Origin: Promethearchaeota archaeon
GTDB taxonomy: Archaea; Asgardarchaeota; Lokiarchaeia; Sigyniarchaeales; SOKP01
Direction: 5' to 3'
NCBI GenBank assembly: GCA_016840085.1
Contig: JAEOTA010000010.1
Coordinates: 1 to 50,108, forward strand
DNA: 50,108 nucleotides
Made by a program: the position numbers and the translations under genes. The notes under the pieces are model-generated. The model saw only the letters and a list, made by a program, of their open reading frames with translations. It was not told the DNA's origin and did no database searches. Every line of letters begins with the position of its first letter. Positions within the stretch are counted from its first letter, which is position 1. Shown here piece by piece: positions 7,009-22,548 of this stretch.

Positions 7009-9144
7009 CTAATCTATTTGATTTGAAAAAATATCCAAGTCTAGACTTTTTTTTATAAAAATTTCCACTATTAGCGATTTAAGTGAAGGGATATCTTTTA
7101 ATTCAACATTTCGGCTTGACTTATAGAATTTATTTAATGTCTCCCATATAGAGGTAGTATTTTGTATATGTTCTTTAAATGCAATTAATTTTCGACTTGC
7201 TAGATATGTTTGCCCTTTGAATAAATAACATATTGAAAACGTCTCAACTGATTGCATGAGTATAGTATATTCGCCAAATTTAGCCCTATCAAGTCCCTTA
7301 GAAAAGAGTTCCCCACTAAAAGAATTAAAAGCACTTAAAAATCCACTTATAAGATCATCTTCAAAAGCCCATTTTTCTGCAAATTGGTTAGAAAATAAAG
7401 GAAAACCACCCTCTCCTATAATTAAAAGTAGCACAGGAACTTCAGGGGTTAATTTAGGGAGTTCAACTGCCTGTTTTCCTTGCATACGATCTATAACCCC
7501 ATCAAAGGAGGCTAATTTTATGCGTTCAGACATAGGGGCATTTATTTTTTTAAGATTATCCCAATCATTTAATTGTTCCAATAAATTATCATGTTCACTA
7601 GAAATCTTTATAGCTAACAATTTAAGACCATGTAGCTCAGCAATACGTTGAGCGTGTGTTAATAATTGTTTAGCTTCTACAATATCCATTTGGATTAATG
7701 CCAGCTTTGCTTGTAACAATTTTGTCTCAGTTAACCATAAATAAGCATGTTGATTCTCCGCTATCGTAGACATTCTATTAATTAGTGGATTAATTTCATC
7801 CAACACTTCTGGATTATTAGTCATGAATAATTCATCTAAAAAAAGATCACATAAATTAACTATGGCCTGGAGATATAATCGAGGAGTAATAGGTTCACTA
7901 TCAACTATTTGTTTAAGTAATAGTTCGGCTTCGGAATGATTTCGAATTCGACCTTTTATTTTCAACATTAATGCTTTCGCTATCTTGTAAGCTTGGGTGG
8001 GGGCTTTGCTTTCCATTTGTTGAGAAACTTGCTCTAATTGCGTTAAGTATATTTGAGCTTGCTCAAGAGAATTTTTATCTAGATTTGTTAGAACTAAATA
8101 AAAAAGTGAGGAGTATATACCATGCGGTAAATTGAGTTTTTCTGAAAGTGTCAAACTACGCTTAAGATAATCTATAGCTTTGTAAAAATCTCCTTTCATT
8201 CTATAAGTAGACCCTATTCCCATTAAATTATATGTAACTCCTTCGATGTAGTCCTCATTCTCTGCAAGCGAGACCGAACGTGTATAATATCTTAGAGTCC
8301 TATCTAACTCGCCTTTCTCTTTGTAAATAGCGCCTAAAGTATGCAATGAACCAGTTTTAGCAGTGATGCTCATTTCGTTAATTGTTAAACTCTGTTTGCA
8401 ATAATTCAAAGCCTGATCGAAGTCACCCTTTATATAATAGCAAAGCCCAACTAATGCAAGGTTTGATGCTATACCAATCTGATTTTCTAATTCTTTTTGA
8501 ATTGCTAAACTCTTTAAAGCGTAATCTAAAGCTTTGTTAGGCTCACTTTTATACAAATATATATCTCCGAGTAGCCAATAAATAAGTGAAATATCGATTT
8601 TTTCCGCTACCTTTTCTCTTGTTTCAACCCAATGTAATGCTAGCTCTAATGCCTTATTAAGATCATCATTTAAACGATAAATTCTGGATTTTATTATTAA
8701 AAAATCCGATTGTTGTCTAGAAAGATTTAAGTATGTTTCACCAGAAACTGAATTAAGTAATTTTTCAGCCTTTAGTATTAGATCAAGTGCTTTATCTTGC
8801 TCACCTAGAAATGCAATATAAGATTTAATAAGGAGACCATCGATAGTACTAGTTATATCTCCCATTCTTTGACTCAGATCATAAGCGAGTTCCCCAAATT
8901 CTACAGCTTTCTTATATTGTTCCTTATAATTATATATTCTTCCTTTCAAGATTAGTGTTGATAATTCATCTTTGGGAGTGTTTGTTTCTTCTCTCTCAAA
9001 ACTCGTTAATATTTCAAGCGCTTTCTCAAACTTAGCTTTATACATCAGTTGTTCTACATTTATTAGTTCATCGGATTTAGATTCGAACAAATTTACTTGT
9101 CTCCCATTATGAGAAAAAAATCTCGGAATAGAATTATCTTTCAA
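7009..9144 (-). CDS. TPR-repeat protein with C-terminal longin-like domain
   Basis: Multiple TPR units (LGDIYLYKSEPNKALDY, LGAIYKEKGELDRTLRYY, IGSTYRMKGDFYKAIDY). C-terminal LLLIIGEGGFPLFS...LISGFLSAFNSFSGELF matches the longin-like pattern common in Asgard proteins. Confidence 0.75.
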   Translation of the reverse strand: MKDNSIPRFFSHNGRQVNLFESKSDELINVEQLMYKAKFEKALEILTSFEREETNTPKDELSTLILKGRIYNYKEQYKKAVEFGELAYDLSQRMGDITSTIDGLLIKSYIAFLGEQDKALDLILKAEKLLNSVSGETYLNLSRQQSDFLIIKSRIYRLNDDLNKALELALHWVETREKVAEKIDISLIYWLLGDIYLYKSEPNKALDYALKSLAIQKELENQIGIASNLALVGLCYYIKGDFDQALNYCKQSLTINEMSITAKTGSLHTLGAIYKEKGELDRTLRYYTRSVSLAENEDYIEGVTYNLMGIGSTYRMKGDFYKAIDYLKRSLTLSEKLNLPHGIYSSLFYLVLTNLDKNSLEQAQIYLTQLEQVSQQMESKAPTQAYKIAKALMLKIKGRIRNHSEAELLLKQIVDSEPITPRLYLQAIVNLCDLFLDELFMTNNPEVLDEINPLINRMSTIAENQHAYLWLTETKLLQAKLALIQMDIVEAKQLLTHAQRIAELHGLKLLAIKISSEHDNLLEQLNDWDNLKKINAPMSERIKLASFDGVIDRMQGKQAVELPKLTPEVPVLLLIIGEGGFPLFSNQFAEKWAFEDDLISGFLSAFNSFSGELFSKGLDRAKFGEYTILMQSVETFSICYLFKGQTYLASRKLIAFKEHIQNTTSIWETLNKFYKSSRNVELKDIPSLKSLIVEIFIKKSLDLDIFSNQID

Positions 9145-11663: not shown

Positions 11664-11891
11664 TTAACCAACTATAACAAATGACATCATGTTATTAATC
11701 ATGGTCTTTTTTTCCGTACTAGAAAGGCTGGGATCAAGAGAATCTTTTATGCGTTTCCTTATTTGACCATGGCTTTCATTATTAGCTAATCCTTGGTTTA
11801 CCGTATCAATTATATTCTGGCCAAGAACAGTACCAAATTTTTGAAGGATATTATCCTTTGTATTATTAGATATTTCAGACATTTTTCTCAT
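11664..11891 (-). CDS. Small protein, candidate precursor peptide for the adjacent radical SAM enzyme
   Basis: 72-75 aa ORF directly upstream of and co-directional with the rSAM gene; helical-looking body with hydrophobic tail MMSFVIVG. Confidence 0.6.
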   Translation of the reverse strand: MRKMSEISNNTKDNILQKFGTVLGQNIIDTVNQGLANNESHGQIRKRIKDSLDPSLSSTEKKTMINNMMSFVIVG

Positions 11892-12107: not shown

Positions 12108-12665
12108 TTATAACTCTGCAGATAATACCTTATTTTTTTGATATAGATCATTAATAATTGCATTAAAAGCTTCAATAACTCCCTGTCCTGTTTTTGCTGA
12201 AGTTATGTAATAACCGAGAAAATTTCGGTTTTTAATAACTTCTTGAATTTTAGAATGATCTATGTTATTTTCATCCGCTAAATCAATTTTATTAGCAAAT
12301 ACAATGGTAGGAATATTTCCACAATAATGATTTACATCTTGATGCCAATCTGATATATGGTTAAAACTTTCTTCTCCAAGTTTATTTTCTTCTAAGCTAT
12401 ATACAATTATAGCTGCCTTACTGCTTTTAAAAAAGGATGGACGTAAAAAGTGAAATGTATTTTGGCCAGCTATATCCCAAAATAATAATCTAATTTGATC
12501 TCCTTCAATTTCTTTGTCAAAAACAGAAAATTGTGCGCCAATAGTTTTAATATAATCCTTTATGAAAGAACCTTTTGTAAAGTTTTTAATTAAGGTTGTC
12601 TTACCTACTCTTCCATCACCGACAACAGCTATCTTAAAACTGAATTTGCGTCCTCTTTCATTCAT
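12108..12665 (-). CDS. Rab/Ras-like small GTPase (cassette 1)
   Basis: G1 GDGRVGKT, G2 TIG, G3 WDIAGQ, G4 NKID, G5 TSAK. No C-terminal Cys prenylation motif. Confidence 0.95.
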   Translation of the reverse strand: MNERGRKFSFKIAVVGDGRVGKTTLIKNFTKGSFIKDYIKTIGAQFSVFDKEIEGDQIRLLFWDIAGQNTFHFLRPSFFKSSKAAIIVYSLEENKLGEESFNHISDWHQDVNHYCGNIPTIVFANKIDLADENNIDHSKIQEVIKNRNFLGYYITSAKTGQGVIEAFNAIINDLYQKNKVLSAEL

Positions 12666-12867
12666 TTTTTTTTCGCAGAAATCGGGTAATAATTAATTCT
12701 TATTAAAAAGTTTTAACTAGAGTAAGATCAGTTATTAATTAATATAAAATTTTGGTTTAAAAATCACCTCAAAATGAAATTTCTTCGCTATTAAGCAAAT
12801 TTTTAGAATGTTCCATACATCATGTATGAAAATAAAAAAAATTCGGTTTATTTTGATCAATAATTTT

Positions 12868-12912
12868 TATAAAGAAAAAAAAGAAGGAGGGAGTCATTAA
12901 AGGACCCCCTCC
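12868..12912 (-). terminator. GC-rich hairpin plus U-tract ending the small-peptide operon
   Basis: Minus strand GGAGGGGGTC-CTTTAAT-GACTCCCTCC: 10-bp stem with one G-U pair (12886-12912), followed by TTCTTTTTTTTCTTT. Confidence 0.65.
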
Positions 12913-12989
12913 CCCTAGCCTTACTACTCCCTGATCTGATTACTCAACTTTTCAGATGAATAAAATCAGCTTGATGAGAATAAATTATT

Positions 12990-13271
12990 TTAGAGAAGCC
13001 CGTAATTCCTGTAATGTATATTTCTTTTAAGATTTTCAATATTAAACACTTCTTCTAAATATTTAGCGTTATATCTAGCTTTCTTTAATAATTTTGATAA
13101 AGCTCTTTTAATAGGTTTTTCCTCTGCCTTAACTTTCACTACTTCGAATTCCCCCTCAATTGGAGGGAGCTCTTCTAAAATAATTATTTCTTCAATTTTG
13201 AATGGTTCCTCAAGAGCTTTTTTCTTGACCATAACTTCAACCATTTTGTTAATCAACCCCTTTTTTTTCAA
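12990..13271 (-). CDS. Small hypothetical protein 'C' of cassette 1 (true start may be the ATG of MVEVMVKKKA)
   Basis: Charged Glu/Lys-rich ORF in tandem with the 13275 ORF. Its NAKYLEE segment resembles NPRYFEE of the A peptides. Confidence 0.6.
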   Translation of the reverse strand: MKKKGLINKMVEVMVKKKALEEPFKIEEIIILEELPPIEGEFEVVKVKAEEKPIKRALSKLLKKARYNAKYLEEVFNIENLKRNIHYRNYGLL

Positions 13272-13274
13272 ATT

Positions 13275-13478
13275 TTATTTTAAATCTTTTAGACCGAATC
13301 TAAACTTTTCAGGATTCAACAAATAATAATCATAAGATTGTTTCCATCTTTTTTCGACTCTCTTCTTTTCAATCAAATCTGTTCCGCTTTCGGTGACGAG
13401 GGGTGTTTTAATCAATATCTTAGGCCATTGCCTAATTTCTCTTATAAAATCTACATCCAAATATTCATTTAAATCCAA
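13275..13478 (-). CDS. Small peptide 'B1' of cassette 1
   Basis: C-terminus YYLLNPEKFRFGLKDLK aligns with DYLLHPKKYNFGWKDL of 17052..17144. RBS-like GAGGTGGTGA lies upstream near 13509-13518; the start could be an in-frame CTG near 13504. Confidence 0.72.
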   Translation of the reverse strand: MDLNEYLDVDFIREIRQWPKILIKTPLVTESGTDLIEKKRVEKRWKQSYDYYLLNPEKFRFGLKDLK

Positions 13479-13552
13479 TTTGATTACATCTTTACTTTCT
13501 GTCAGAAATCACCACCTCTTTATTTTTTATTTAAAAATTAATGTGATTCTTT

Positions 13553-13807
13553 TTAGTAATACCCAAAAAGGTTAAAGTTAGAACTATGAATGATATCCGA
13601 TGATTCTATTTTGAGTTTTGCATCTTTTAGTGTAATCTGGTTTTCAAAGTATCTTGGGTTTATATTCTTGTAAATTTCATATAGCTCATATTGTTTTTTT
13701 ACTTCAATGTCTTTTTCCTTGGTTTTGGAAACTTTTTTCAATAAAACTATAAATAATTCTTCAAGTTCTACAAGAGTATCCTTTTTTTTTATTAGAACTT
13801 GTCCCAT
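13553..13807 (-). CDS. Small peptide 'A1' of cassette 1
   Basis: AAGAGGG upstream of ATG. C-terminal NPRYFENQITLKDAKLKIESSDIIHSSNFNLFGYY aligns without gaps to the 14034 ORF. Confidence 0.78.
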   Translation of the reverse strand: MGQVLIKKKDTLVELEELFIVLLKKVSKTKEKDIEVKKQYELYEIYKNINPRYFENQITLKDAKLKIESSDIIHSSNFNLFGYY

Positions 13808-13847
13808 TTTTTTCCCTCTTTTATATTTATTCTTGAATATAGTAAGA

Positions 13848-13909
13848 TCAGGGTTCGATATATAGTTTTACATGCAGAACTTCGCTTGGACTTTTAGATT
13901 TGTTTTAGA
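13848..13909 (-). promoter_or_regulatory. Conserved promoter/operator, copy 1 (TATA plus AGTT-N10-AACT)
   Basis: 62-bp block aligns ungapped to 14287-14348 (46/62 identical by hand count). ATATATAG at 13858-13865; AGTT-ttacatgcag-AACT at 13864-13881. Confidence 0.7.
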
Positions 13910-14033
13910 GTCCAATTTTCTAATACTATTGAAAAATACTATCTTACTTGCAAATTTTATAATTTATTAAAGTTTCATGATTTACAACTTATTTTAGATT
14001 TTAGAAATAGAGTAAAAAAAAATTTTAAAATGT

Positions 14034-14261
14034 TTAAATACCATTAAAGAAGTTGAATTTAGAACTCAAAATAATATCTGAAGTAAAATTTCTTTCTTTT
14101 GCTCCATTAAGATGTTCAATTTCTTCAAAATATCTTGGATTCAAATCTCCAAGTACTTCATCCTCTTCATTTTCTATAGGAGTATGAACTTCATCTTCTT
14201 CAACTTCAGGGATTTTCATAACCGTTAAATTTTCATAAGCTTGGGTCATTTTTCTCATCAC
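14034..14261 (-). CDS. Small peptide 'A2' of cassette 1
   Basis: Acidic body with internal repeat EEDEV twice. C-terminal NPRYFEEIEHLNGAKERNFTSDIILSSKFNFFNGI is paralogous to A1. Divergent from the regulator. Confidence 0.78.
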   Translation of the reverse strand: MMRKMTQAYENLTVMKIPEVEEDEVHTPIENEEDEVLGDLNPRYFEEIEHLNGAKERNFTSDIILSSKFNFFNGI

Positions 14262-14286
14262 TTTTTTTTTGTTAAATTAAATTAGG

Positions 14287-14348
14287 TCAGGGTTTAATAT
14301 ATAGTTTAATATCCAAAACTCTAATTGGAGTCCCGAATTTGTTTTAGA
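14287..14348 (-). promoter_or_regulatory. Conserved promoter/operator, copy 2, in the divergent intergenic region
   Basis: ATATATAG at 14297-14304; AGTT-taatatccaa-AACT at 14303-14320. A TATAAATA at 14357-14364 could serve the + strand regulator. Confidence 0.7.
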
Positions 14349-14395
14349 TCGAAAAGTATAAATAAACCCTACAATATAATAATTATAGAGTTTTC

Positions 14396-16306
14396 GTGAC
14401 TCCATGCAATTTTCCCCCTAAGGAAATTTTAGATCCTATCATTGGAAGACCAAATTATGAATATATTATTCTTTGGATCTTGAATAATAATGAAGTATGC
14501 TCTTGGTCAGATTTAAAAGAAAAAGTGAATCGATCAACTTTATCAATATATTTGAATAGACTTAAACGCGATGGCTATATAGTAAAGAGTGAATTTAATA
14601 AGTATCGTGTTACACCTAAAGGAAGAAATAGATTTTACGATTTAAGTCAAGCTAAGCAAAAAGGAAGAAAATTAAGTTATCCTCCGCAGGTAATATTAAA
14701 CCAAAGAAACTATGATCATTGGGTTCTGTGGATGTTGTACAATAATAACTACTGTAAATGGGCAGATTTTCTCGAAGAACCTCTTAAAATAAATCAATCT
14801 TCATTATCGAAGAATTTAAATAATTTAATCGAGAATAAATTTGTAAGAAAGGAAGATAAAGAGTATAGAATTACCCAAACCGGGAAATTGGAATACTCTA
14901 AAATGTTAAGCCATTATGATTTAGATAGACAATCAATATTAGAAGAAGAAAGTAAACGGATTGCAGAGTTGACTCAAAAAACACTCAAGTTTTTTGAATA
15001 TTATGAAATTAGTGATAGAGGCATTCAATTTAGATTTCTTAATAGTGTATTGAGACTAGATTATGAACAAATTAAAAGTGTATTAAGAAATGAGGTGGAT
15101 TTTCATAAAATATTGCTTTTTCTCTCAATGAATCACCCAAATGAATTTCCGAATTATATTTCTCTTAAGGATTTTTCAGAAAAGTATGAAATTAAAAAAA
15201 CTACTCTTGAATACTATACTGATGAGATAGTCGAAAATCAAATTTATCCAATAAAATTTTTTAAATTGGAGGTTCCTCCTAATAAATATTACTATTTTCA
15301 ATCAGGTGAAAAAATAGAAATGATGCTACGAGTTATTGCAGAGGAGCACATAACAAAGTTTACCTACTTGAATAAACTTTTTGAAAATTCATCAAAATTA
15401 ATTCTACCTCTTGATATGAATTCTACAGTAAATGCTATTTTGGAAGAAGCATGCCAAAATATTTTCAAAGAGGATTTAAAAAGCTCATTAAGGAAATTTT
15501 TGCCTGAATATATTAATTATTTAGCCTATAAAATCGAGAAAAAGAGGAGATTAATAGGTATTGCCGATAAGCTAGAAGGAATTATTTGGCAGAATATTCC
15601 TGAAATGTTTAAATCAATAAATAAAGATGAATTAGAAGCTCAATATGATGAAAAAATTGAAGAAATCAATAAAGCGATTGAATTGAATCCAGACAAACTT
15701 GATTTATATTATTCAAAAATTAAGATTTTGATATATTTTAACCAATATGAGGAGGTAATTGAATTGATAGATAAAATGCTAAATCAATTTACTGATGAGG
15801 AAAGGGATCTTAAAATTAAAAGAGCATATATTCTTAAAGAAATGAGAAATATAGAAGCGGGATTGGAGATCATCAATGAATTAATTGATAAATATCCGAA
15901 AGATAATAATCTTCTTCTCAATAAAACATATTGGTTACAATATTTAGATAAAAAAGAAGAAGCCTTAGAATTAATTTTAAATTTGATAGAAAGTGAACCC
16001 GAAAATGGACTTTATTATGACACTTATGGTGAAATTCTAATGAATTTTGCTGAATATGACAACGCTATAAAACAGTTCCAGAAAGCAATAAAGATTAGCA
16101 GTAATACATGGTATAGTTACCAAACATATATTAAATTAGGAATTTGTTATAAAGAACTTGAAAATTATGAATTAGCTATTAAATATCTCCAGAAAGGGAA
16201 AGAATTTACAAATAAGGCTTTAATTGATATTAATACCAAAAAGGAATGGTTAGCAATTACAGAATTATTCCTAGCAGAAATAGAACAACTTCAAGCTGAG
16301 TTTTAA
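14396..16306 (+). CDS. Multi-winged-helix plus C-terminal TPR putative transcriptional regulator (cassette 1)
   Basis: Two tandem MarR/ArsR-like wHTH repeats (IILWILNNN...STLSIYLNRLKRDGYI...YRVTPKG; VLWMLYNNN...SSLSKNLNNLIENKFV...YRITQTG), a probable third wHTH (ISLKDFSEKYEIKKTTLEYY), then TPRs (YYDTYGEILMNFAEYDNAIKQFQKAI; YIKLGICYKELENYELAIKYLQKG). Confidence 0.8.
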   Translation: MTPCNFPPKEILDPIIGRPNYEYIILWILNNNEVCSWSDLKEKVNRSTLSIYLNRLKRDGYIVKSEFNKYRVTPKGRNRFYDLSQAKQKGRKLSYPPQVILNQRNYDHWVLWMLYNNNYCKWADFLEEPLKINQSSLSKNLNNLIENKFVRKEDKEYRITQTGKLEYSKMLSHYDLDRQSILEEESKRIAELTQKTLKFFEYYEISDRGIQFRFLNSVLRLDYEQIKSVLRNEVDFHKILLFLSMNHPNEFPNYISLKDFSEKYEIKKTTLEYYTDEIVENQIYPIKFFKLEVPPNKYYYFQSGEKIEMMLRVIAEEHITKFTYLNKLFENSSKLILPLDMNSTVNAILEEACQNIFKEDLKSSLRKFLPEYINYLAYKIEKKRRLIGIADKLEGIIWQNIPEMFKSINKDELEAQYDEKIEEINKAIELNPDKLDLYYSKIKILIYFNQYEEVIELIDKMLNQFTDEERDLKIKRAYILKEMRNIEAGLEIINELIDKYPKDNNLLLNKTYWLQYLDKKEEALELILNLIESEPENGLYYDTYGEILMNFAEYDNAIKQFQKAIKISSNTWYSYQTYIKLGICYKELENYELAIKYLQKGKEFTNKALIDINTKKEWLAITELFLAEIEQLQAEF

Positions 16307-16350
16307 GTAGTATTTTAAAAGCTTCGAAGATTTGATTCTTATCAAAAGAT

Positions 16351-16905
16351 TTATGATGCTGAAGCTAATTCTTTATACTTCTTATATAATTTATTGATAA
16401 TAGCGTTAAAAGCGTCATACACTCCTTGACCCGTTTTTGCAGATGTTAGATAATAACCAAGAAAATTTTGGTTATTTACTACTTTTTGAATCTTGATATC
16501 ATCTAAATTACTTTCATCAACTAAATCAACTTTATTAGCAAATAATATAATTGGAATATCTTCACAATGTTGCTGTACTTCATTATTCCAATGTTCTATA
16601 TTTTCAAAACTTCTTTTTCCAAACTCATTCTCTTCTAAACTATACACAATGATTGCAGCTCTACTCTCATTGTAAAAAGAGGGGCGTAGAAAATGAAATT
16701 CATCTTGACCTGCAATATCCCAAAAGATTAATCTAATGTGATCTCCCTCAATTTCCTTATCAAATTCAGAAAATTGCGCACCAATAGACCTCACATAATT
16801 TTTTTCAAAAGACCCTTTCGTAAATTTTTTAATCAAGGAGGTCTTTCCTACCCTTCCATCTCCTATAACCGTAATCTTAAAACCAAATTTCTGAGGACCC
16901 GCCAT
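16351..16905 (-). CDS. Rab/Ras-like small GTPase (cassette 2)
   Basis: GDGRVGKT, SIG, WDIAGQ, NKVD, TSAK. Close paralog of 12108..12665, sharing the YSLEEN..G..SF insert. Confidence 0.95.
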   Translation of the reverse strand: MAGPQKFGFKITVIGDGRVGKTSLIKKFTKGSFEKNYVRSIGAQFSEFDKEIEGDHIRLIFWDIAGQDEFHFLRPSFYNESRAAIIVYSLEENEFGKRSFENIEHWNNEVQQHCEDIPIILFANKVDLVDESNLDDIKIQKVVNNQNFLGYYLTSAKTGQGVYDAFNAIINKLYKKYKELASAS

Positions 16906-17051
16906 CGAAATATTTTATAGAAACTGATTATAAATTTTTGATTAATGTAAGATTAGATATTTTTTAATATAAAATTTTAGTTCTATAGTGAAAAATTATA
17001 ACAAAAGAACAAGAAAACAAAAATAAAATAGAAAAAAAAAAAGATAATTAA

Positions 17052-17144
17052 TTATAGGTCTTTCCATCCAAAGTTGTATTTTTTTGGATGTAAAAGATAA
17101 TCCACTAGGGTTGCATCCATTCCCTTAGCTTTCTTTTTTGACAT
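17052..17144 (-). CDS. 30-aa peptide 'B2' MSKKKAKGMDATLVDYLLHPKKYNFGWKDL
   Basis: Hand-translated, below the ORF-track cutoff. GGAGG RBS at 17154-17158. C-terminal half matches B1. Confidence 0.72.
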   Translation of the reverse strand: MSKKKAKGMDATLVDYLLHPKKYNFGWKDL

Positions 17145-17185
17145 TTTTAATTTCCTCCATAAAGTTTTTTAAAATAAAAAAAAAA

Positions 17186-17269
17186 TTATTTGGTGATGCC
17201 ATCAAAAATAGGATGGCAAATTATATCATTCCTAACCTTGATAATTCCTTCCTTAGCTTTTTTTCTCAT
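17186..17269 (-). CDS. 27-aa peptide 'A3' MRKKAKEGIIKVRNDIICHPIFDGITK
   Basis: Hand-translated. GAGGTC RBS at 17276-17281, downstream of the conserved TATA/palindrome. NDII...FDGI echoes SDII...FNGI of A2. Confidence 0.62.
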   Translation of the reverse strand: MRKKAKEGIIKVRNDIICHPIFDGITK

Positions 17270-17316
17270 TTTTTTGACCTCTTATTTTTACTTAATTTTA
17301 ATATGGGTTTGATTAC

Positions 17317-17353
17317 ATATATAGTTCAGGATGCTGAACTTTTCACGAAGTTC
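17317..17353 (-). promoter_or_regulatory. Conserved promoter/operator, copy 3
   Basis: ATATATAG at 17317-17324 overlaps the perfect inverted repeat AGTTCAG-gatg-CTGAACT (17323-17340). A second inverted repeat GAACTT-N6-AAGTTC spans 17336-17353. Confidence 0.7.
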
Positions 17354-17435
17354 GAAATAAAAAGAAAGCACACATAATTTAAATAGCATAAAAAACTATC
17401 TATAACTAACGATTATAAATTTTAATGTATAACTT

Positions 17436-19340
17436 ATGAGTACTATACAATACCCTCCTGAAGAGATTTATAAGACTCCTATATTAGGCAAGAAAAATTT
17501 TGAACATATTATTCTCTGGATGTTATATAATAATGAAGAATGCGAATGGGCTTGTTTTTCTCAAAAACCTCTTGAACTACGGTTATCTACTTTATCAAAA
17601 TACTTATCACTGCTAAAGGGAAAGCAATATGTTGAAAAACTTTCAAGAGGGCATTATAAAATTACGTCAGAAGGTAAAAAGAGATTTCTTGAATTATCTA
17701 AAGACGTAGGAAAGAAAAGAAAATTAAGTTATCCGCCAGATATAATTAAAAAGAAAAGAAACTATGATCATTGGATACTGTGGATGGTGTATAATAATAA
17801 TTATTGCAAGTGGGCAGACTTTCTAGCCGAACCTCTTTCTATTAATCAATCATCCTTATCAAAGAATATGAATTTATTATTGGATTTAGGATATATAGAA
17901 AAAGAGAATAAAGAATATAGAATTACTCAATTAGGCAAGTTAGAGTATTCTAGAATATTACAAGATTATGATTTAGATAGACAATCAATCTTGGATGAAG
18001 AAAGTAAACGAATTGAAGAGATAACTAAAAAAACAATCAATTTTTTTGATAAATACGGTATTGAGGATGAAAATATACAATTTAGATATCTTCACAATGT
18101 TTTAAGGTTAGATTATACAAGAGTAGAATCAATGCTTTCAAATGAGGAGGATTTTAATAAAATTTTACTCTATATCTCAATAAATCATCCAGATCAATAT
18201 CCGGATTATATATCCACAGAAGAATTTTCGAGCAAATATCGGATTAAACAATCTAAACTTGAATATTATATTGATGAAATTGTTGAAAATAACATATATC
18301 CAATTAAATTTTTTAAATTAGTGGTTTCTTCCGACGAAAAATATTATTTACAAGAAGATGAAAAATTAGAAAAAATACTTAGAGCGATTACAGAAGGTCA
18401 TATTACCAAATTTACCTATTTAGATAAATTATTCTCAAGATCTATGAATAGACGTGCTATTGTAAGAGAAATTTTAGAAGAAATTTGCGAAGTATTATTC
18501 AATAATGATTTAGAAAAAACTTTAAGAGAATTTTTACCAGACTATATTAATTACTTAGCATATAAGGTTGAAGCTAAAATAGAATTTAAAGAAAGTCTCG
18601 ATAAGCTTGAAGGAATAATTTGGCAAGATATGATAGAGATATTTCAATCGAATGAATCTAAAGATTTCGAACAACAATATGAGGAAGAACTTGAAGAGAT
18701 TAATAAACAAATAGAATCAAATCCAAAAAACCTCGACCTATATTATTCTAAAATTAGGATTTTAGTTTATTTTGATCAATTTGATGAAGTGTTAGAATTA
18801 TTAGATGAGATACTCGAAATGTTCCCTGCTAATGAAAAAGATATTAAGATGCAAAAAGCATCTGTTCTTAGGAGAATGCAAAAAATAGAAGCTGGACTAG
18901 AAATAATTAATAATTTACTGCTAAAATTTCCTGAAGATTATGATCTTCTTAATTATAAGGCTTACTGGTTCTATTATTTAAATGAAAAAGAAGGTGCAAT
19001 AAAACTAATTAAGGAGATCATAGAGCATGAACCAAATAATGCGACTTACCATGATACCTATGGAGAAATCTCTATGTTTTTTAAAGATTATGATAAAGCT
19101 ATAAAAGAATTCCAAAAAACGTTAGATTTAGCAACTGATGATTGGTATTTAAACCAGACTTATATTAAGTTAGGAATATGTTATAAAGAATTAGAAAATT
19201 ATGAAGCTGCACTTGAAAATCTTCAGAAAGGAAAAGATCTCACAAATAAATCTTCAATTGATCCCGAAACCAAAAAAAAGTGGCTTTCAATTGCAGAACT
19301 TTTCATTGCAGAGATTTCTCAATTAGGGGTTGAGTTTTAG
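17436..19340 (+). CDS. Multi-winged-helix plus TPR putative regulator (cassette 2)
   Basis: Full-length paralog of 14396..16306, sharing RNYDHW.LWM.YNNNYCKWADFL, YDLDRQSIL.EESKRI and QTYIKLGICYKELENYE. Confidence 0.8.
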   Translation: MSTIQYPPEEIYKTPILGKKNFEHIILWMLYNNEECEWACFSQKPLELRLSTLSKYLSLLKGKQYVEKLSRGHYKITSEGKKRFLELSKDVGKKRKLSYPPDIIKKKRNYDHWILWMVYNNNYCKWADFLAEPLSINQSSLSKNMNLLLDLGYIEKENKEYRITQLGKLEYSRILQDYDLDRQSILDEESKRIEEITKKTINFFDKYGIEDENIQFRYLHNVLRLDYTRVESMLSNEEDFNKILLYISINHPDQYPDYISTEEFSSKYRIKQSKLEYYIDEIVENNIYPIKFFKLVVSSDEKYYLQEDEKLEKILRAITEGHITKFTYLDKLFSRSMNRRAIVREILEEICEVLFNNDLEKTLREFLPDYINYLAYKVEAKIEFKESLDKLEGIIWQDMIEIFQSNESKDFEQQYEEELEEINKQIESNPKNLDLYYSKIRILVYFDQFDEVLELLDEILEMFPANEKDIKMQKASVLRRMQKIEAGLEIINNLLLKFPEDYDLLNYKAYWFYYLNEKEGAIKLIKEIIEHEPNNATYHDTYGEISMFFKDYDKAIKEFQKTLDLATDDWYLNQTYIKLGICYKELENYEAALENLQKGKDLTNKSSIDPETKKKWLSIAELFIAEISQLGVEF

Positions 19341-19348
19341 ACGTAAAT

Positions 19349-21139
19349 TCAGTTCTTTTCTACTAATTTTTCTAATTCATCTATCTTATCCGAGAGATAT
19401 TTAATCCCTTTTTGCCAGAAAGAAGAATCATTCAGGTTAATACCTATTTCAGATAACATTTCTTCAGGAGAAAGTGAGCTTCCAATAGAAAGTAATTTGA
19501 GATACTTAGGAACGAATTTTTCTTTCTGCTCGAGATACATTTGATAGATTGAAATCACTAAAAGGTTAGACATGTTATAAGCATAGACATAGAAAGGCTC
19601 GTGTAGAAAATGTGGAACTACAAAACAATAACTAGCATAATCTTTTTCGATGTTGCTGATTGAATTTCCAAACATTAATTCCATTTCTTTAACAAAAGCT
19701 TTTTTGATTTCATCTGCTGTAGGGAGTTTTTTCTCAAGGATTTCATGAATTTTTCTTTCAAAGTGATAAAAAGCATTTTGTCTGTGAGAAGTAGCAAATT
19801 TAGATTCTATAAAAGAACATAATAGTGTAATTTTTTCTTCTTTTGAATCTACTGTCTCAAGAAGGAGATCTGTTACTAATAATTCATTGAATATAGATGC
19901 TATTTCAGCAACTACTAATGATATTTGTATATTTATAAAATTTTGATCCCTTTGAATATAAAAAGCATGAAAAGCATGGCCAAGTTCATGTGCTAACGCT
20001 CGAACCGAATCGATATTATATGTGAAATTAATAAAAACAAAGGGATAATGCTTTAATTTTCCATATTCGCAAAAAGCTCCCCTATTTTTCCCTTTCCGGG
20101 GAGTTACATCTATATGATTTAATTTATTCATATTTTCTACTATATTTTTGAATTCTGGGTGGAATTTTTCAGTAGCAGTTTTAATCAATTCTATTGTTTC
20201 CTGGTAGGAATATTCTCTTGTTATCTGACCAATGGGTGCGTAAATATCTGATATATGCAATTCTGGAAGATTCAAGATTTTTTTCTTTAAATTATAATAT
20301 CTCTCAACAATATTATTACTTTCTGTGGTAAAATTTCCAAGTACTTCAACGATTTCATCACTTACTTCATTTTGCAGATTTCTTCTAGATATTGGATGAA
20401 TAAAATTCTTTTTCTTATTTTCTAAATCCCAGTTTTTGAGGATATTAGTGAAAATGTGTGTGAAAATCATTTCATTGTTTTTGTATTCTGTTAACATTGT
20501 TTGTAAGGCTTTATAACGAAGATCTTTATCCTGCTGATACATAAAAGCAAAAAGTTCTGCTTCAGTTAATATTTTCTTTTTTCCATCTACTTCAAAATCA
20601 AATAAGAAACTGCTTTTTAATTCTCTATAAAGATTTAGGAATCCCTTAACACCAGTAATATCTTTCATTAAAATTAACTGTTCTTCTTTTTCAGAAAGCT
20701 GATGTTTCTTTTTCATTCTATTAAATTTTAGTGCATGAGAATAACGGTTTAGTTCAGGAGCTTTAATAAGTTCTTTAAATTTCTCATCTGAAATCATATT
20801 TAGCTCTAAATTAAAAAATAAGAGCTTTTCTTGAATTGCGACTTTAAAATCTTCTATTTTTGCATGAAAGGATTTTACACTCTCATCTAATGAATTAATA
20901 GAATATATTAATAGAGAATAAATGCTGAGGTAAAAGACTTTCTCAGAAATTTTTTCGTATTCTTGATACCATTTTATGAGTTGTTGAGGATGAAGTGAAG
21001 GATTCTCCAACTTTCCTTTGACCTTTTGATAAAATTCTTCTGAGGCATTTTTTATATCTTCAATATCCCTGTCAATTGAGGGATCATTGATATTCTTATA
21101 GAAATTGCTCAAATCCCATTTAATGAGATCTTCAACCAT
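19349..21139 (-). CDS. pepF: Oligoendopeptidase F (M3B family)
   Basis: WDLS N-terminus, IDVTPRKGKNRGAFC, zinc motif AHELGHAFH, AEIASIFNE, PHF...FYVYAY. Confidence 0.9.
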   Translation of the reverse strand: MVEDLIKWDLSNFYKNINDPSIDRDIEDIKNASEEFYQKVKGKLENPSLHPQQLIKWYQEYEKISEKVFYLSIYSLLIYSINSLDESVKSFHAKIEDFKVAIQEKLLFFNLELNMISDEKFKELIKAPELNRYSHALKFNRMKKKHQLSEKEEQLILMKDITGVKGFLNLYRELKSSFLFDFEVDGKKKILTEAELFAFMYQQDKDLRYKALQTMLTEYKNNEMIFTHIFTNILKNWDLENKKKNFIHPISRRNLQNEVSDEIVEVLGNFTTESNNIVERYYNLKKKILNLPELHISDIYAPIGQITREYSYQETIELIKTATEKFHPEFKNIVENMNKLNHIDVTPRKGKNRGAFCEYGKLKHYPFVFINFTYNIDSVRALAHELGHAFHAFYIQRDQNFINIQISLVVAEIASIFNELLVTDLLLETVDSKEEKITLLCSFIESKFATSHRQNAFYHFERKIHEILEKKLPTADEIKKAFVKEMELMFGNSISNIEKDYASYCFVVPHFLHEPFYVYAYNMSNLLVISIYQMYLEQKEKFVPKYLKLLSIGSSLSPEEMLSEIGINLNDSSFWQKGIKYLSDKIDELEKLVEKN

Positions 21140-21494: not shown

Positions 21495-21866
21495 ATGAGC
21501 AAATTTGAAAATCATAAAAAACTGTATTTGAATTTTAAAGGAGATGCTGAAAATGAGGATCTTTCATTACCCTCTAGAGCAGAATTATACTTTCTTTCGA
21601 TATATCATTTAATTGAATGCTGCGCAGCAAAATATCGGATACATATCAACAAACATCAAAAAGTAAGGATACTCTTAGAAAATAATCCGTATATCTTTGA
21701 AAAAGAAACTGAAAACGTATGGCGATTATTTCAAGATATTGAAAATAAAATTCGACCAAAATTCACTTATGGATTTAGTTGGACGGATAAAGATTTTAGT
21801 GAATTGAAGGAAAAATATTATATATTAGAAGAAATAGGCAATAAGATTCTAACGGAGGAATTTTAA
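21495..21866 (+). CDS. HEPN-like protein (putative toxin)
   Basis: Small helical protein (AELYFLSIYHLIEC, HQKV, IRPKFTYG) ending 1 bp before an MNT gene. Confidence 0.6.
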   Translation: MSKFENHKKLYLNFKGDAENEDLSLPSRAELYFLSIYHLIECCAAKYRIHINKHQKVRILLENNPYIFEKETENVWRLFQDIENKIRPKFTYGFSWTDKDFSELKEKYYILEEIGNKILTEEF

Positions 21867-21867
21867 T

Positions 21868-22548
21868 ATGAAACTTGAAGAAAGCGAGATAAAAAATTTA
21901 AAGAGCACTTCAAAATTGGAGGAGATAATTAAAAATATTAAGACTTTTATAGACAGTAATCTCTCTAAATATAAAGAGATTGGAAATATTATATTATTTG
22001 GCTCTTTATCTACTGGAAGGTTTAATAAAGAGAGTGATATCGACATTTGTATTTTGTTTAAGCGAAATACTCCTAAAAGTATGGAAAATACCATTTTTAA
22101 CTATTTTTTGAACCTAGGAAAGGAATTAAATCGCTCTATCCAATGTATTTTCTTTTTTCCGGAGGATATAAATAACTGGGATACAATTTTTGTGGAAAAT
22201 ATTTTAGCAGAAGGTCAATCACTCTATGGAAATTCTAATTATTATGAAACTTTAATAAAAACTCTAAAAGTGAAACCATATCAAATTATAACTTTAAATC
22301 TAAGAGCATTAAATAATTCTGCTAAAATGAAACTTAAAAGAATATTATATGGATATAAAACTACCAAACAATATTCAGAAAAAATATATAAATATAAAAA
22401 AAAAGGATTAGTAAAAGAATTACAAGGAATGAAATTAGGACGGGGATCATTCATTATACCTGAAAAATTCTTATTTTTGATTGAAAATAAGTTAAAAGAA
22501 TTTGATATTAAATTTTCAAACTTTAGAGTATGGATGCAAGAAATATAG
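21868..22548 (+). CDS. Minimal nucleotidyltransferase (MNT) antitoxin with C-terminal extension
   Basis: LFGSLSTGRFNKESDIDI (GS-x10-DxD), followed by about 100 extra basic residues. Confidence 0.85.
   Translation: MKLEESEIKNLKSTSKLEEIIKNIKTFIDSNLSKYKEIGNIILFGSLSTGRFNKESDIDICILFKRNTPKSMENTIFNYFLNLGKELNRSIQCIFFFPEDINNWDTIFVENILAEGQSLYGNSNYYETLIKTLKVKPYQIITLNLRALNNSAKMKLKRILYGYKTTKQYSEKIYKYKKKGLVKELQGMKLGRGSFIIPEKFLFLIENKLKEFDIKFSNFRVWMQEI

Follow-up and report, generated by a model that had tools for sequence, protein, structure and literature searches.

A stretch of 50,108 nucleotides from a Promethearchaeota archaeon (contig JAEOTA010000010.1 of assembly GCA_016840085.1; this whole stretch is referred to here as the window) was found to carry, between positions 12108 and 19340, two tandem cassettes, each composed of a regulator with winged helix-turn-helix (wHTH) and tetratricopeptide repeat (TPR) domains, very small proteins encoded divergently from it, and a Rab-like small GTPase. 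These cassettes belong to a real, conserved and undescribed regulatory system confined to one family of the Lokiarchaeia, in which the regulators probably bind operators placed in front of the microprotein genes. The parts of both cassettes are the following:

12108..12665, minus strand: Rab-like small GTPase 1, 185 aa (Pfam Ras, E 1e-39), with the G1-G5 motifs and the catalytic Gln, and without C-terminal prenylation cysteines.
12699..12757, minus strand: own promoter element of GTPase 1, resembling a B recognition element (BRE) and TATA box, without operator (repeat D10 with 16924-16982).
12882..12916, minus strand: terminator-like GC-rich hairpin (14 pairs, 8 G-C) with a T run, between the microprotein operon and GTPase 1.
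12990..13244, minus strand: N-family microprotein, 84 aa (66.7 bits with the N hidden Markov model, HMM), with a Shine-Dalgarno (SD)-like site; AlphaFold 2 (AF2) model with a predicted local distance difference test score (pLDDT) of 64 and a predicted template modelling score (pTM) of 0.25; absent from the first-pass annotation.
13275..13505, minus strand: long microprotein of the B family, about 76 aa (67 aa if counted from the first TTG), with a C-terminal YYxLxPxKFxFGLKDL-type motif.
13553..13807, minus strand: N-family microprotein, 84 aa (N HMM 42.7 bits), with an SD site; first gene of the second operator.
13856..13911, minus strand: second operator and TATA unit, inside cassette 1 (position weight matrix, PWM, 38.8 bits; repeat D5).
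14034..14261, minus strand: N-family microprotein, probable start ATG 14249, 71 aa (N HMM 50.9 bits); this is the cassette 1 "peptide A" of the first-pass annotation.
14295..14350, minus strand: operator with ACTTC/GAAGT-type half-sites, abutting the BRE/TATA of the divergent operon (PWM 44.2 bits, the top match of the genome).
14396..16306, plus strand: regulator 1, 636 aa, GTG start, with three wHTH, helical linkers and a TPR block.
16351..16905, minus strand: Rab-like small GTPase 2, 184 aa (Pfam Ras, E 1e-39).
16924..16982, minus strand: promoter element of GTPase 2, with the T-rich tract that follows peptide B just upstream of it.
17052..17144, minus strand: short B peptide, 30 aa, with a GGAGG site 8 nt upstream.
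17186..17269, minus strand: short A peptide, 27 aa, with a basic N-terminus, a conserved hydrophobic strand-like motif, a variable C-terminus and a GAGGT site.
17315..17370, minus strand: cassette 2 operator and TATA, GAACTT-N5-GAAGTTC (PWM 33.0 bits).
17436..19340, plus strand: regulator 2, 634 aa, with wHTH 22-89, wHTH 110-176, wHTH-like 237-306, a helical segment 310-404 and TPR 409-629 (AF2 pLDDT 84.9, pTM 0.45).

The first-pass annotation of this region had proposed one peptide A, one peptide B and one operator per cassette. The two regulators of about 635 aa on the plus strand and the two Rab-like GTPases on the minus strand were confirmed, with identities between copies of 57% and 68%, respectively; wHTH and TPR matches were obtained in both regulators, and both GTPases belonged to the Ras/Rab family. 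The small genes did not follow the proposed scheme: cassette 1 contained four small open reading frames (ORFs) and two operator/TATA units (at 14295 and 13856) in the order operator-N-operator-N-B-N, and cassette 2 had the order operator-A-B, B being the only small gene common to both.

The TATA box and palindrome that had been described as shared by both cassettes were borne out when the genome was scanned with the PWM. The three sites of the window and that of a third regulator ranked at the top with 33-44 bits, and shuffled sequences gave about 16-17 bits, never exceeding 16.9. Furthermore, motif sampling in 151 upstream regions revealed a TATA box on the divergent strand followed by ACTTC/GAAGT half-sites at a nearly fixed distance from the regulator start; most of the 151 regulators had the operator at about -110 to -130. 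The spacing between operator and TATA was fixed, and the first ORF mostly began 45-70 nt downstream. A short basic ORF with an SD site followed 44 of 238 operators versus 5 of 1963 plain TATA boxes. Orphan sites also emerged from the scan, among them one that precedes an A-type ORF of 23 aa and another in front of a CxxC gene that is linked to the regulator in other genomes. The first of these units (L191:5360-5431, plus strand; G000:C50) had no regulator or GTPase within 5 kb. Five such loci with operator and peptide but no regulator were found in all, this one and four more, and since these units are distant from any regulator, they point to a regulon.

The operator subtype and the recognition helix of the first wHTH shifted together between clades, and the helix of the second wHTH was nearly invariant; as the clades share ancestry, this covariation is a matter of consistency and not a proof. 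The motif keeps a nearly constant position upstream of most regulators with flanking DNA, and its subtype changes with the first helix; the regulators probably bind these sites through their wHTHs, as had been suggested. Archaeal activator sites are usually located directly upstream of BRE/TATA, and the regulator is probably an activator, judging from the position of its predicted site. Ptr2, the Lrp-type proteins and Sta1 are archaeal wHTH activators that bind in this position, with 60-160 aa and a single wHTH. The predicted operator abuts BRE/TATA as in those cases, and the divergent layout is also similar; unlike them, the regulators described here combine tandem wHTH with TPR, an arrangement found in none of those proteins. 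A sigma-70 scan gave no more matches than chance would, which is the expected result in an archaeon.

Additionally, a large regulator clade was observed that would drive membrane or secreted protein genes (131 aa, 210-360 aa) instead of peptides at five loci and others related to them; these genes were often found in tandem copies, with one operator per copy.

The nearest relatives were found in Promethearchaeota metagenome-assembled genomes. Matches to the regulator were present in 34 of the 36 genomes of the genus (2-11 each) and in 45 of the 54 genomes of one Lokiarchaeia family, versus a single one among 196 other searched Asgard genomes. The system was not found in two single-contig genomes, and no description of it was found in the literature searched. 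On sequence grounds, the two cassettes are old paralogues and not the product of a recent duplication, because regulators 1 and 2 were placed in separate deep clades and the tandem order was found again in at least eight other genomes. No peptide or GTPase gene was found near the third regulator of the genome, which is located on a different contig. Three length forms (about 630, 830-880 and 980-1050 aa) differed in extra TPR blocks, several regulator 1 orthologues of 830-840 aa having a second block, and forms of about 420-440 aa had no TPR. Fold searches with the whole regulator returned matches to TPRs only; weak, sub-threshold matches were obtained to the wHTH models of Sso10a, Sta1 and Lrs14, and PADLOC gave just weak wHTH/TPR matches. 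The assignment of these proteins as putative transcription factors of a lineage-specific expanded family is well supported.

Regulators without TPR (417-443 aa) and some long-B genes were also found beside a ubiquitin-like gene ending in GG, at nine loci. Three of these loci also contained E1 (ThiF), E2 and JAB genes, a RING-like gene was present at some loci, and a weak operator (20-26 bits) preceded the ubiquitin-like gene at three loci.

Automatic clustering of the small frames was noisy, and the families A, B and N were defined by HMMs together with motif filters. In family A (23-31 aa, 42 collected), the start is basic, a strand-like hydrophobic motif is conserved and the tail varies, the reverse of the earlier claim that the N-termini of the peptides diverge. 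Family B is a C-terminal motif present on proteins of 24-31 aa and of 60-95 aa. Proteins of family N (60-95 aa) share an NAKY/NPRY core; they are acidic in the first half and basic in the second, and they usually end in an aromatic residue. The family formed 100 clusters at 50% identity, all of them small stand-alone proteins save one spurious repeat protein. The C-termini of the peptides had been considered conserved between copies, and this held for B (62-65 bits with the family HMM) but not for the "A" pair, which was not detectably homologous: "A" of cassette 1 scored -0.3 bits on the A HMM, and A of cassette 2 scored 1.9 bits on the N HMM. A common origin of A, B and N was also considered and rejected, with an hhalign probability of about 1% or less; their shared NP-x-aromatic look is unsupported.

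Selection on the peptides, also proposed in the first-pass annotation, was observed and was purifying. The ratio of nonsynonymous to synonymous differences (pN/pS), calculated with disjoint pairs, was 0.43 in A (p 2e-9) and 0.42 in B (p 1e-7), and the small ORFs presented SD-like sites, a third-position excess (also in N) and in-frame indels. By these measures, the small ORFs are genes under purifying selection. The CTG start of the long B (13275-13505) was inferred from a strong SD site just upstream and from homologues that start at the same place with TTG. The median hydropathy of the best 9-residue segment was 0.64 in A and 0.41 in B, with net charges of +5 and +3, respectively (+3 to +5 in both families), and of +7 in the C-terminal half of N; the hydropathy scan detected no hydrophobic export region in A, B or N. 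The N protein at 12990-13244 was predicted to be mostly disordered with short C-terminal helices, its AF2 model being too disordered for a fold search. The N family had no Pfam or Atlas match, and no family or fold match was obtained for the microproteins. A short peptide gene was adjacent to 71 of 131 regulators, an approximate count since the short-A filter overlooks some members and lets in a few false ones; it was typical of the regulator 2 clade and undetected in most clades with membrane genes. The most conserved pairing of regulator and microprotein was that with N, whose gene came first after the operator in at least four genera (including g19, g20 and g21), with or without the GTPase.

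A search for longer proteins carrying B was empty, which is weak evidence. The B motif was also seen as the extreme C-terminus of a 296-aa protein (L222:4518-5408, minus strand) with an N-terminal CxxC zinc-ribbon-like segment and no Pfam match; in a second genome, B matched a frame of similar length. The motif may be a portable tag of C-termini. At five loci, long-B genes without operator adjoined, mostly divergently, a conserved gene for 296 aa whose N-terminus is AbrB/MazE-like. In a clade of 990-aa regulators, divergent 32-49 aa microproteins of the double-CxxC zinc-ribbon type were found at seven loci (pooled pN/pS 0.21).

With regard to the GTPases, the Ras/Rab G1-G5 motifs were present with invariant columns, the switch/interswitch surface was nearly invariant, and neither C-terminus contained the geranylgeranylation cysteines of eukaryotic Rab proteins. 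This genome gave 69-72 small GTPase matches. The promoter element of the GTPase was kept upstream of about 40 homologous GTPase genes and lacks the operator, and the GTPase is, to judge from this element, a separate transcription unit. The first-pass annotation had proposed a feedback circuit with a linked GTPase; as the GTPase is not under the operator, any link with the regulator would be established at the protein level. Of 160 regulators, 89 had a GTPase gene near them, on either side of the regulator, in both orientations and in many clades. Among 131 regulators, 45 (also an approximate count) had no detected small ORF or GTPase on the divergent side.

The concave-face positions of the last TPR repeats were nearly invariant in 103 regulators. 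Residues D540, E544, W570, Q574, K578 and W616 were 100% conserved in all three neighbour groups (A peptides, N/B proteins and membrane genes), and the groove residues were kept in two genomes, 98-100% complete, where no B was found. Among the long regulators, a close GTPase was near 17 of the 18 with the groove kept versus 1 of the 23 with the groove altered; for the 630-aa forms, it was near 78 of 103. The clades with an altered groove still had N and A genes, with no GTPase near, and had retained 0.42 of the groove residues and 0.26 of the cap residues versus 0.66 of the structural TPR residues. The proposal that the TPR binds the adjacent peptides was not upheld: the groove was the same for any peptide or none, it was altered in GTPase-less clades that keep N and A, and the peptides carried no export signal. 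The input of the TPR would more likely be the GTPase than the neighbouring peptides. An uncontrolled complex prediction with regulator 2, GTPase 2 and the short B, in which B was the scored partner, gave a score of 0.00 and is no evidence either way on the GTPase-regulator pair.

The best reading of these data, to which we give slightly less than even confidence, would be an activator that is gated by the GTPase and controls a microprotein regulon. The steps concerning the DNA sites and the genes are well supported, and the protein contacts are conjectural. Firstly, the tandem wHTHs would bind arrays of ACTTC/GAAGT half-sites upstream of BRE/TATA and drive the divergent regulon, which is well supported by the sequence. 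Secondly, the typical products, whose genes were shown and whose function is presumed, would be basic microproteins that are not secreted (A, 23-31 aa; B, 24-95 aa; N, 60-95 aa), with membrane-protein genes driven in other clades. Thirdly, with about even chances, the conserved TPR groove would read the separately transcribed Rab-like GTPase, probably its GTP state, and a large TPR protein encoded nearby might regulate this GTPase. Finally, and speculatively, the microproteins would be disordered intracellular binders, acting as outputs or as feedback modulators; N would be the best candidate for a partner of the regulator, because of its place as first gene behind the operator in several genera. 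That the Rab-like GTPase directly gates the transcription factor through the TPR groove, and that the microproteins so driven feed back on the regulator or the GTPase or signal between cells, is possible but more doubtful than probable.

SgmX/MglA of Myxococcus and the p67phox TPR/Rac pair are examples of TPR effectors of small GTPases. As in these, the TPR of the regulators would likely read the state of a Ras-family GTPase, whose gene is clustered with TPR genes. SgmX and p67phox differ from the system described here in that they do not act as transcription factors and lack a microprotein regulon, and binding is deduced here from co-variation alone.

Two further genes of the window recurred beside these elements:

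7009..9144, minus strand: large TPR protein, of a family recurring beside these GTPases (47 regulator loci).
19349..21139, minus strand: M3/PepF-type oligoendopeptidase, a recurrent neighbour (30 of 160 regulators) whose membership in the system is uncertain.

Past PepF, two ORFs of 123 and 226 aa (21495-22548, plus strand) recurred downstream of regulator 2 orthologues. A 75-aa ORF (11664-11891, minus strand) was located upstream of a B12 radical SAM gene, and ORFs of 82-96 aa with a similar "xVG" tail recurred by B12 radical SAM genes at six loci; these are possible radical SAM substrates.

Several observations weigh against a GTPase-gated activator. The correlation between groove and GTPase comes from a few deep clades and perhaps from 2-4 independent events; the altered clades are more divergent overall (identity 0.25-0.41 vs 0.46-0.56) and hold a conserved groove signature of their own, as would also agree with a switch to another peptide ligand; packing of the capping helix could account for part of the groove signature; and activation was told from repression by site position alone. 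The GTPase clade is, moreover, present in genomes without the regulator. This fact, together with the close paralogues of the GTPase located on other contigs of this genome with no regulator there, also speaks for the GTPase being a mere syntenic neighbour of a real regulon, with the groove binding another conserved ligand such as its own capping helix, a partner subunit, the basal transcription machinery or a metabolite. The own promoter of the GTPase, its location behind a terminator in cassette 1 and the isolated third regulator agree with this explanation. Nevertheless, a single inherited locus would hardly explain linkage at 89 of 160 loci in both orientations and many clades, and the groove is altered where the GTPase link is lost; we consider mere synteny unlikely.

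A system of the RRNPP type, in which the TPR groove would bind a peptide encoded next to it, entire or as a processed fragment, so that cells autoinduce or signal to one another and PepF resets the signal, was judged unlikely as well, at about one chance in five. The cassettes are laid out like Rgg/SHP or RopB/LCP but are not a member of that group, whose defining features are not shared by the DNA-binding part, the chemistry of the peptides or the behaviour of the groove (PMC9765709, PMC10518010). Features shared with the RRNPPA family are a DNA-binding part at the N-terminus and a TPR superhelix at the C-terminus, genes for short peptides that run divergently from that of the receptor, and the occurrence of orphan and multiple paralogous systems (PMC9765709, PMC10518010), and the TPR block at 409-629, from the AF2 model and Pfam, resembles its receptors, with 5-9 tandem TPRs and a concave groove. 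The operator-driven peptide genes divergent from an HTH and TPR regulator, the propeptide-like A peptides with their conserved basic N-terminal part and variable C-terminus, the occurrence of B only in genomes bearing the regulator and at the end of the 296-aa protein, as a portable tag would be, the absence of divergent peptides from five TPR-less regulators of one clade, and PepF at 30 of 160 loci all speak for it; leaderless signals are also known (PMC10518010). PlcR and Rap TPR folds aligned with Z 16-17, tied with unrelated generic TPRs, and no RRNPP chain was present among 28 profile matches. However, a single HTH and/or a three-helix bundle directly before the TPR is found in RRNPPA, whereas here 2-3 wHTH with linkers occupy about 410 aa, and a linked Rab-like GTPase and archaeal TATA promoters are present. 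Leaderless communication peptides (LCPs) have 8-10 aa and are highly hydrophobic (PMC10518010), in contrast to the basic, non-hydrophobic peptides of 23-95 aa described here, and no recurrent exporter was found at the peptide loci. Groove variation is linked to the peptide in receptors of the RopB clan (PMC10518010), whereas here the groove was constant across peptide types, differed only in deep long-form clades, and was kept opposite membrane genes only and where no B was found. The 45 regulators with nothing detected on the divergent side are a further difficulty for this explanation.

The microproteins could also be end products with no feedback on the regulator, namely cationic antagonistic peptides, precursors of peptides that are made by ribosomes and modified post-translationally (RiPPs) for the B12 radical SAM enzyme, or stress proteins binding nucleic acids or ribosomes. 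Their net positive charge, the many diversified paralogues and orphan copies, and a B12 radical SAM gene downstream at 11-12 of 160 loci would fit this. It is nonetheless improbable, as the radical SAM gene was tied only to clades on the side of regulator 1 and not to most A peptides, no recurrent transporter or protease cluster was found, and the microproteins match no family or fold; unlike in RiPP clusters, where the precursor is consistently accompanied by modifying enzyme, protease and exporter, the radical SAM gene was limited here to those 11-12 loci and no exporter recurred. Lastly, although AT-rich intergenic DNA gives many short frames, an explanation of the ORFs as attenuator leaders, or as frames occurring by chance within conserved regulatory DNA, is extremely improbable and already largely refuted by the SD sites, third-position excess, in-frame indels and pN/pS of about 0.4, by the lack of any Rfam match, and by the own promoter of the downstream GTPase.

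Asgard genomes contain dozens of small GTPases, nearly all of them without known partners, and the role of these proteins before the endomembrane system is a question for eukaryogenesis. For one GTPase clade, the present analysis names a candidate effector together with a DNA site and the genes it would control, and it exposes a regulon of mostly unannotated proteins of 23-95 aa. As the system is confined to one Lokiarchaeia family, it is probably an innovation of this lineage and not ancestral to eukaryotes. If the circuit with direct gating by the GTPase and with microproteins that feed back or signal between cells is true, it would be the first peptide-linked regulatory system in archaea and the first defined route from an Asgard small GTPase into gene expression.

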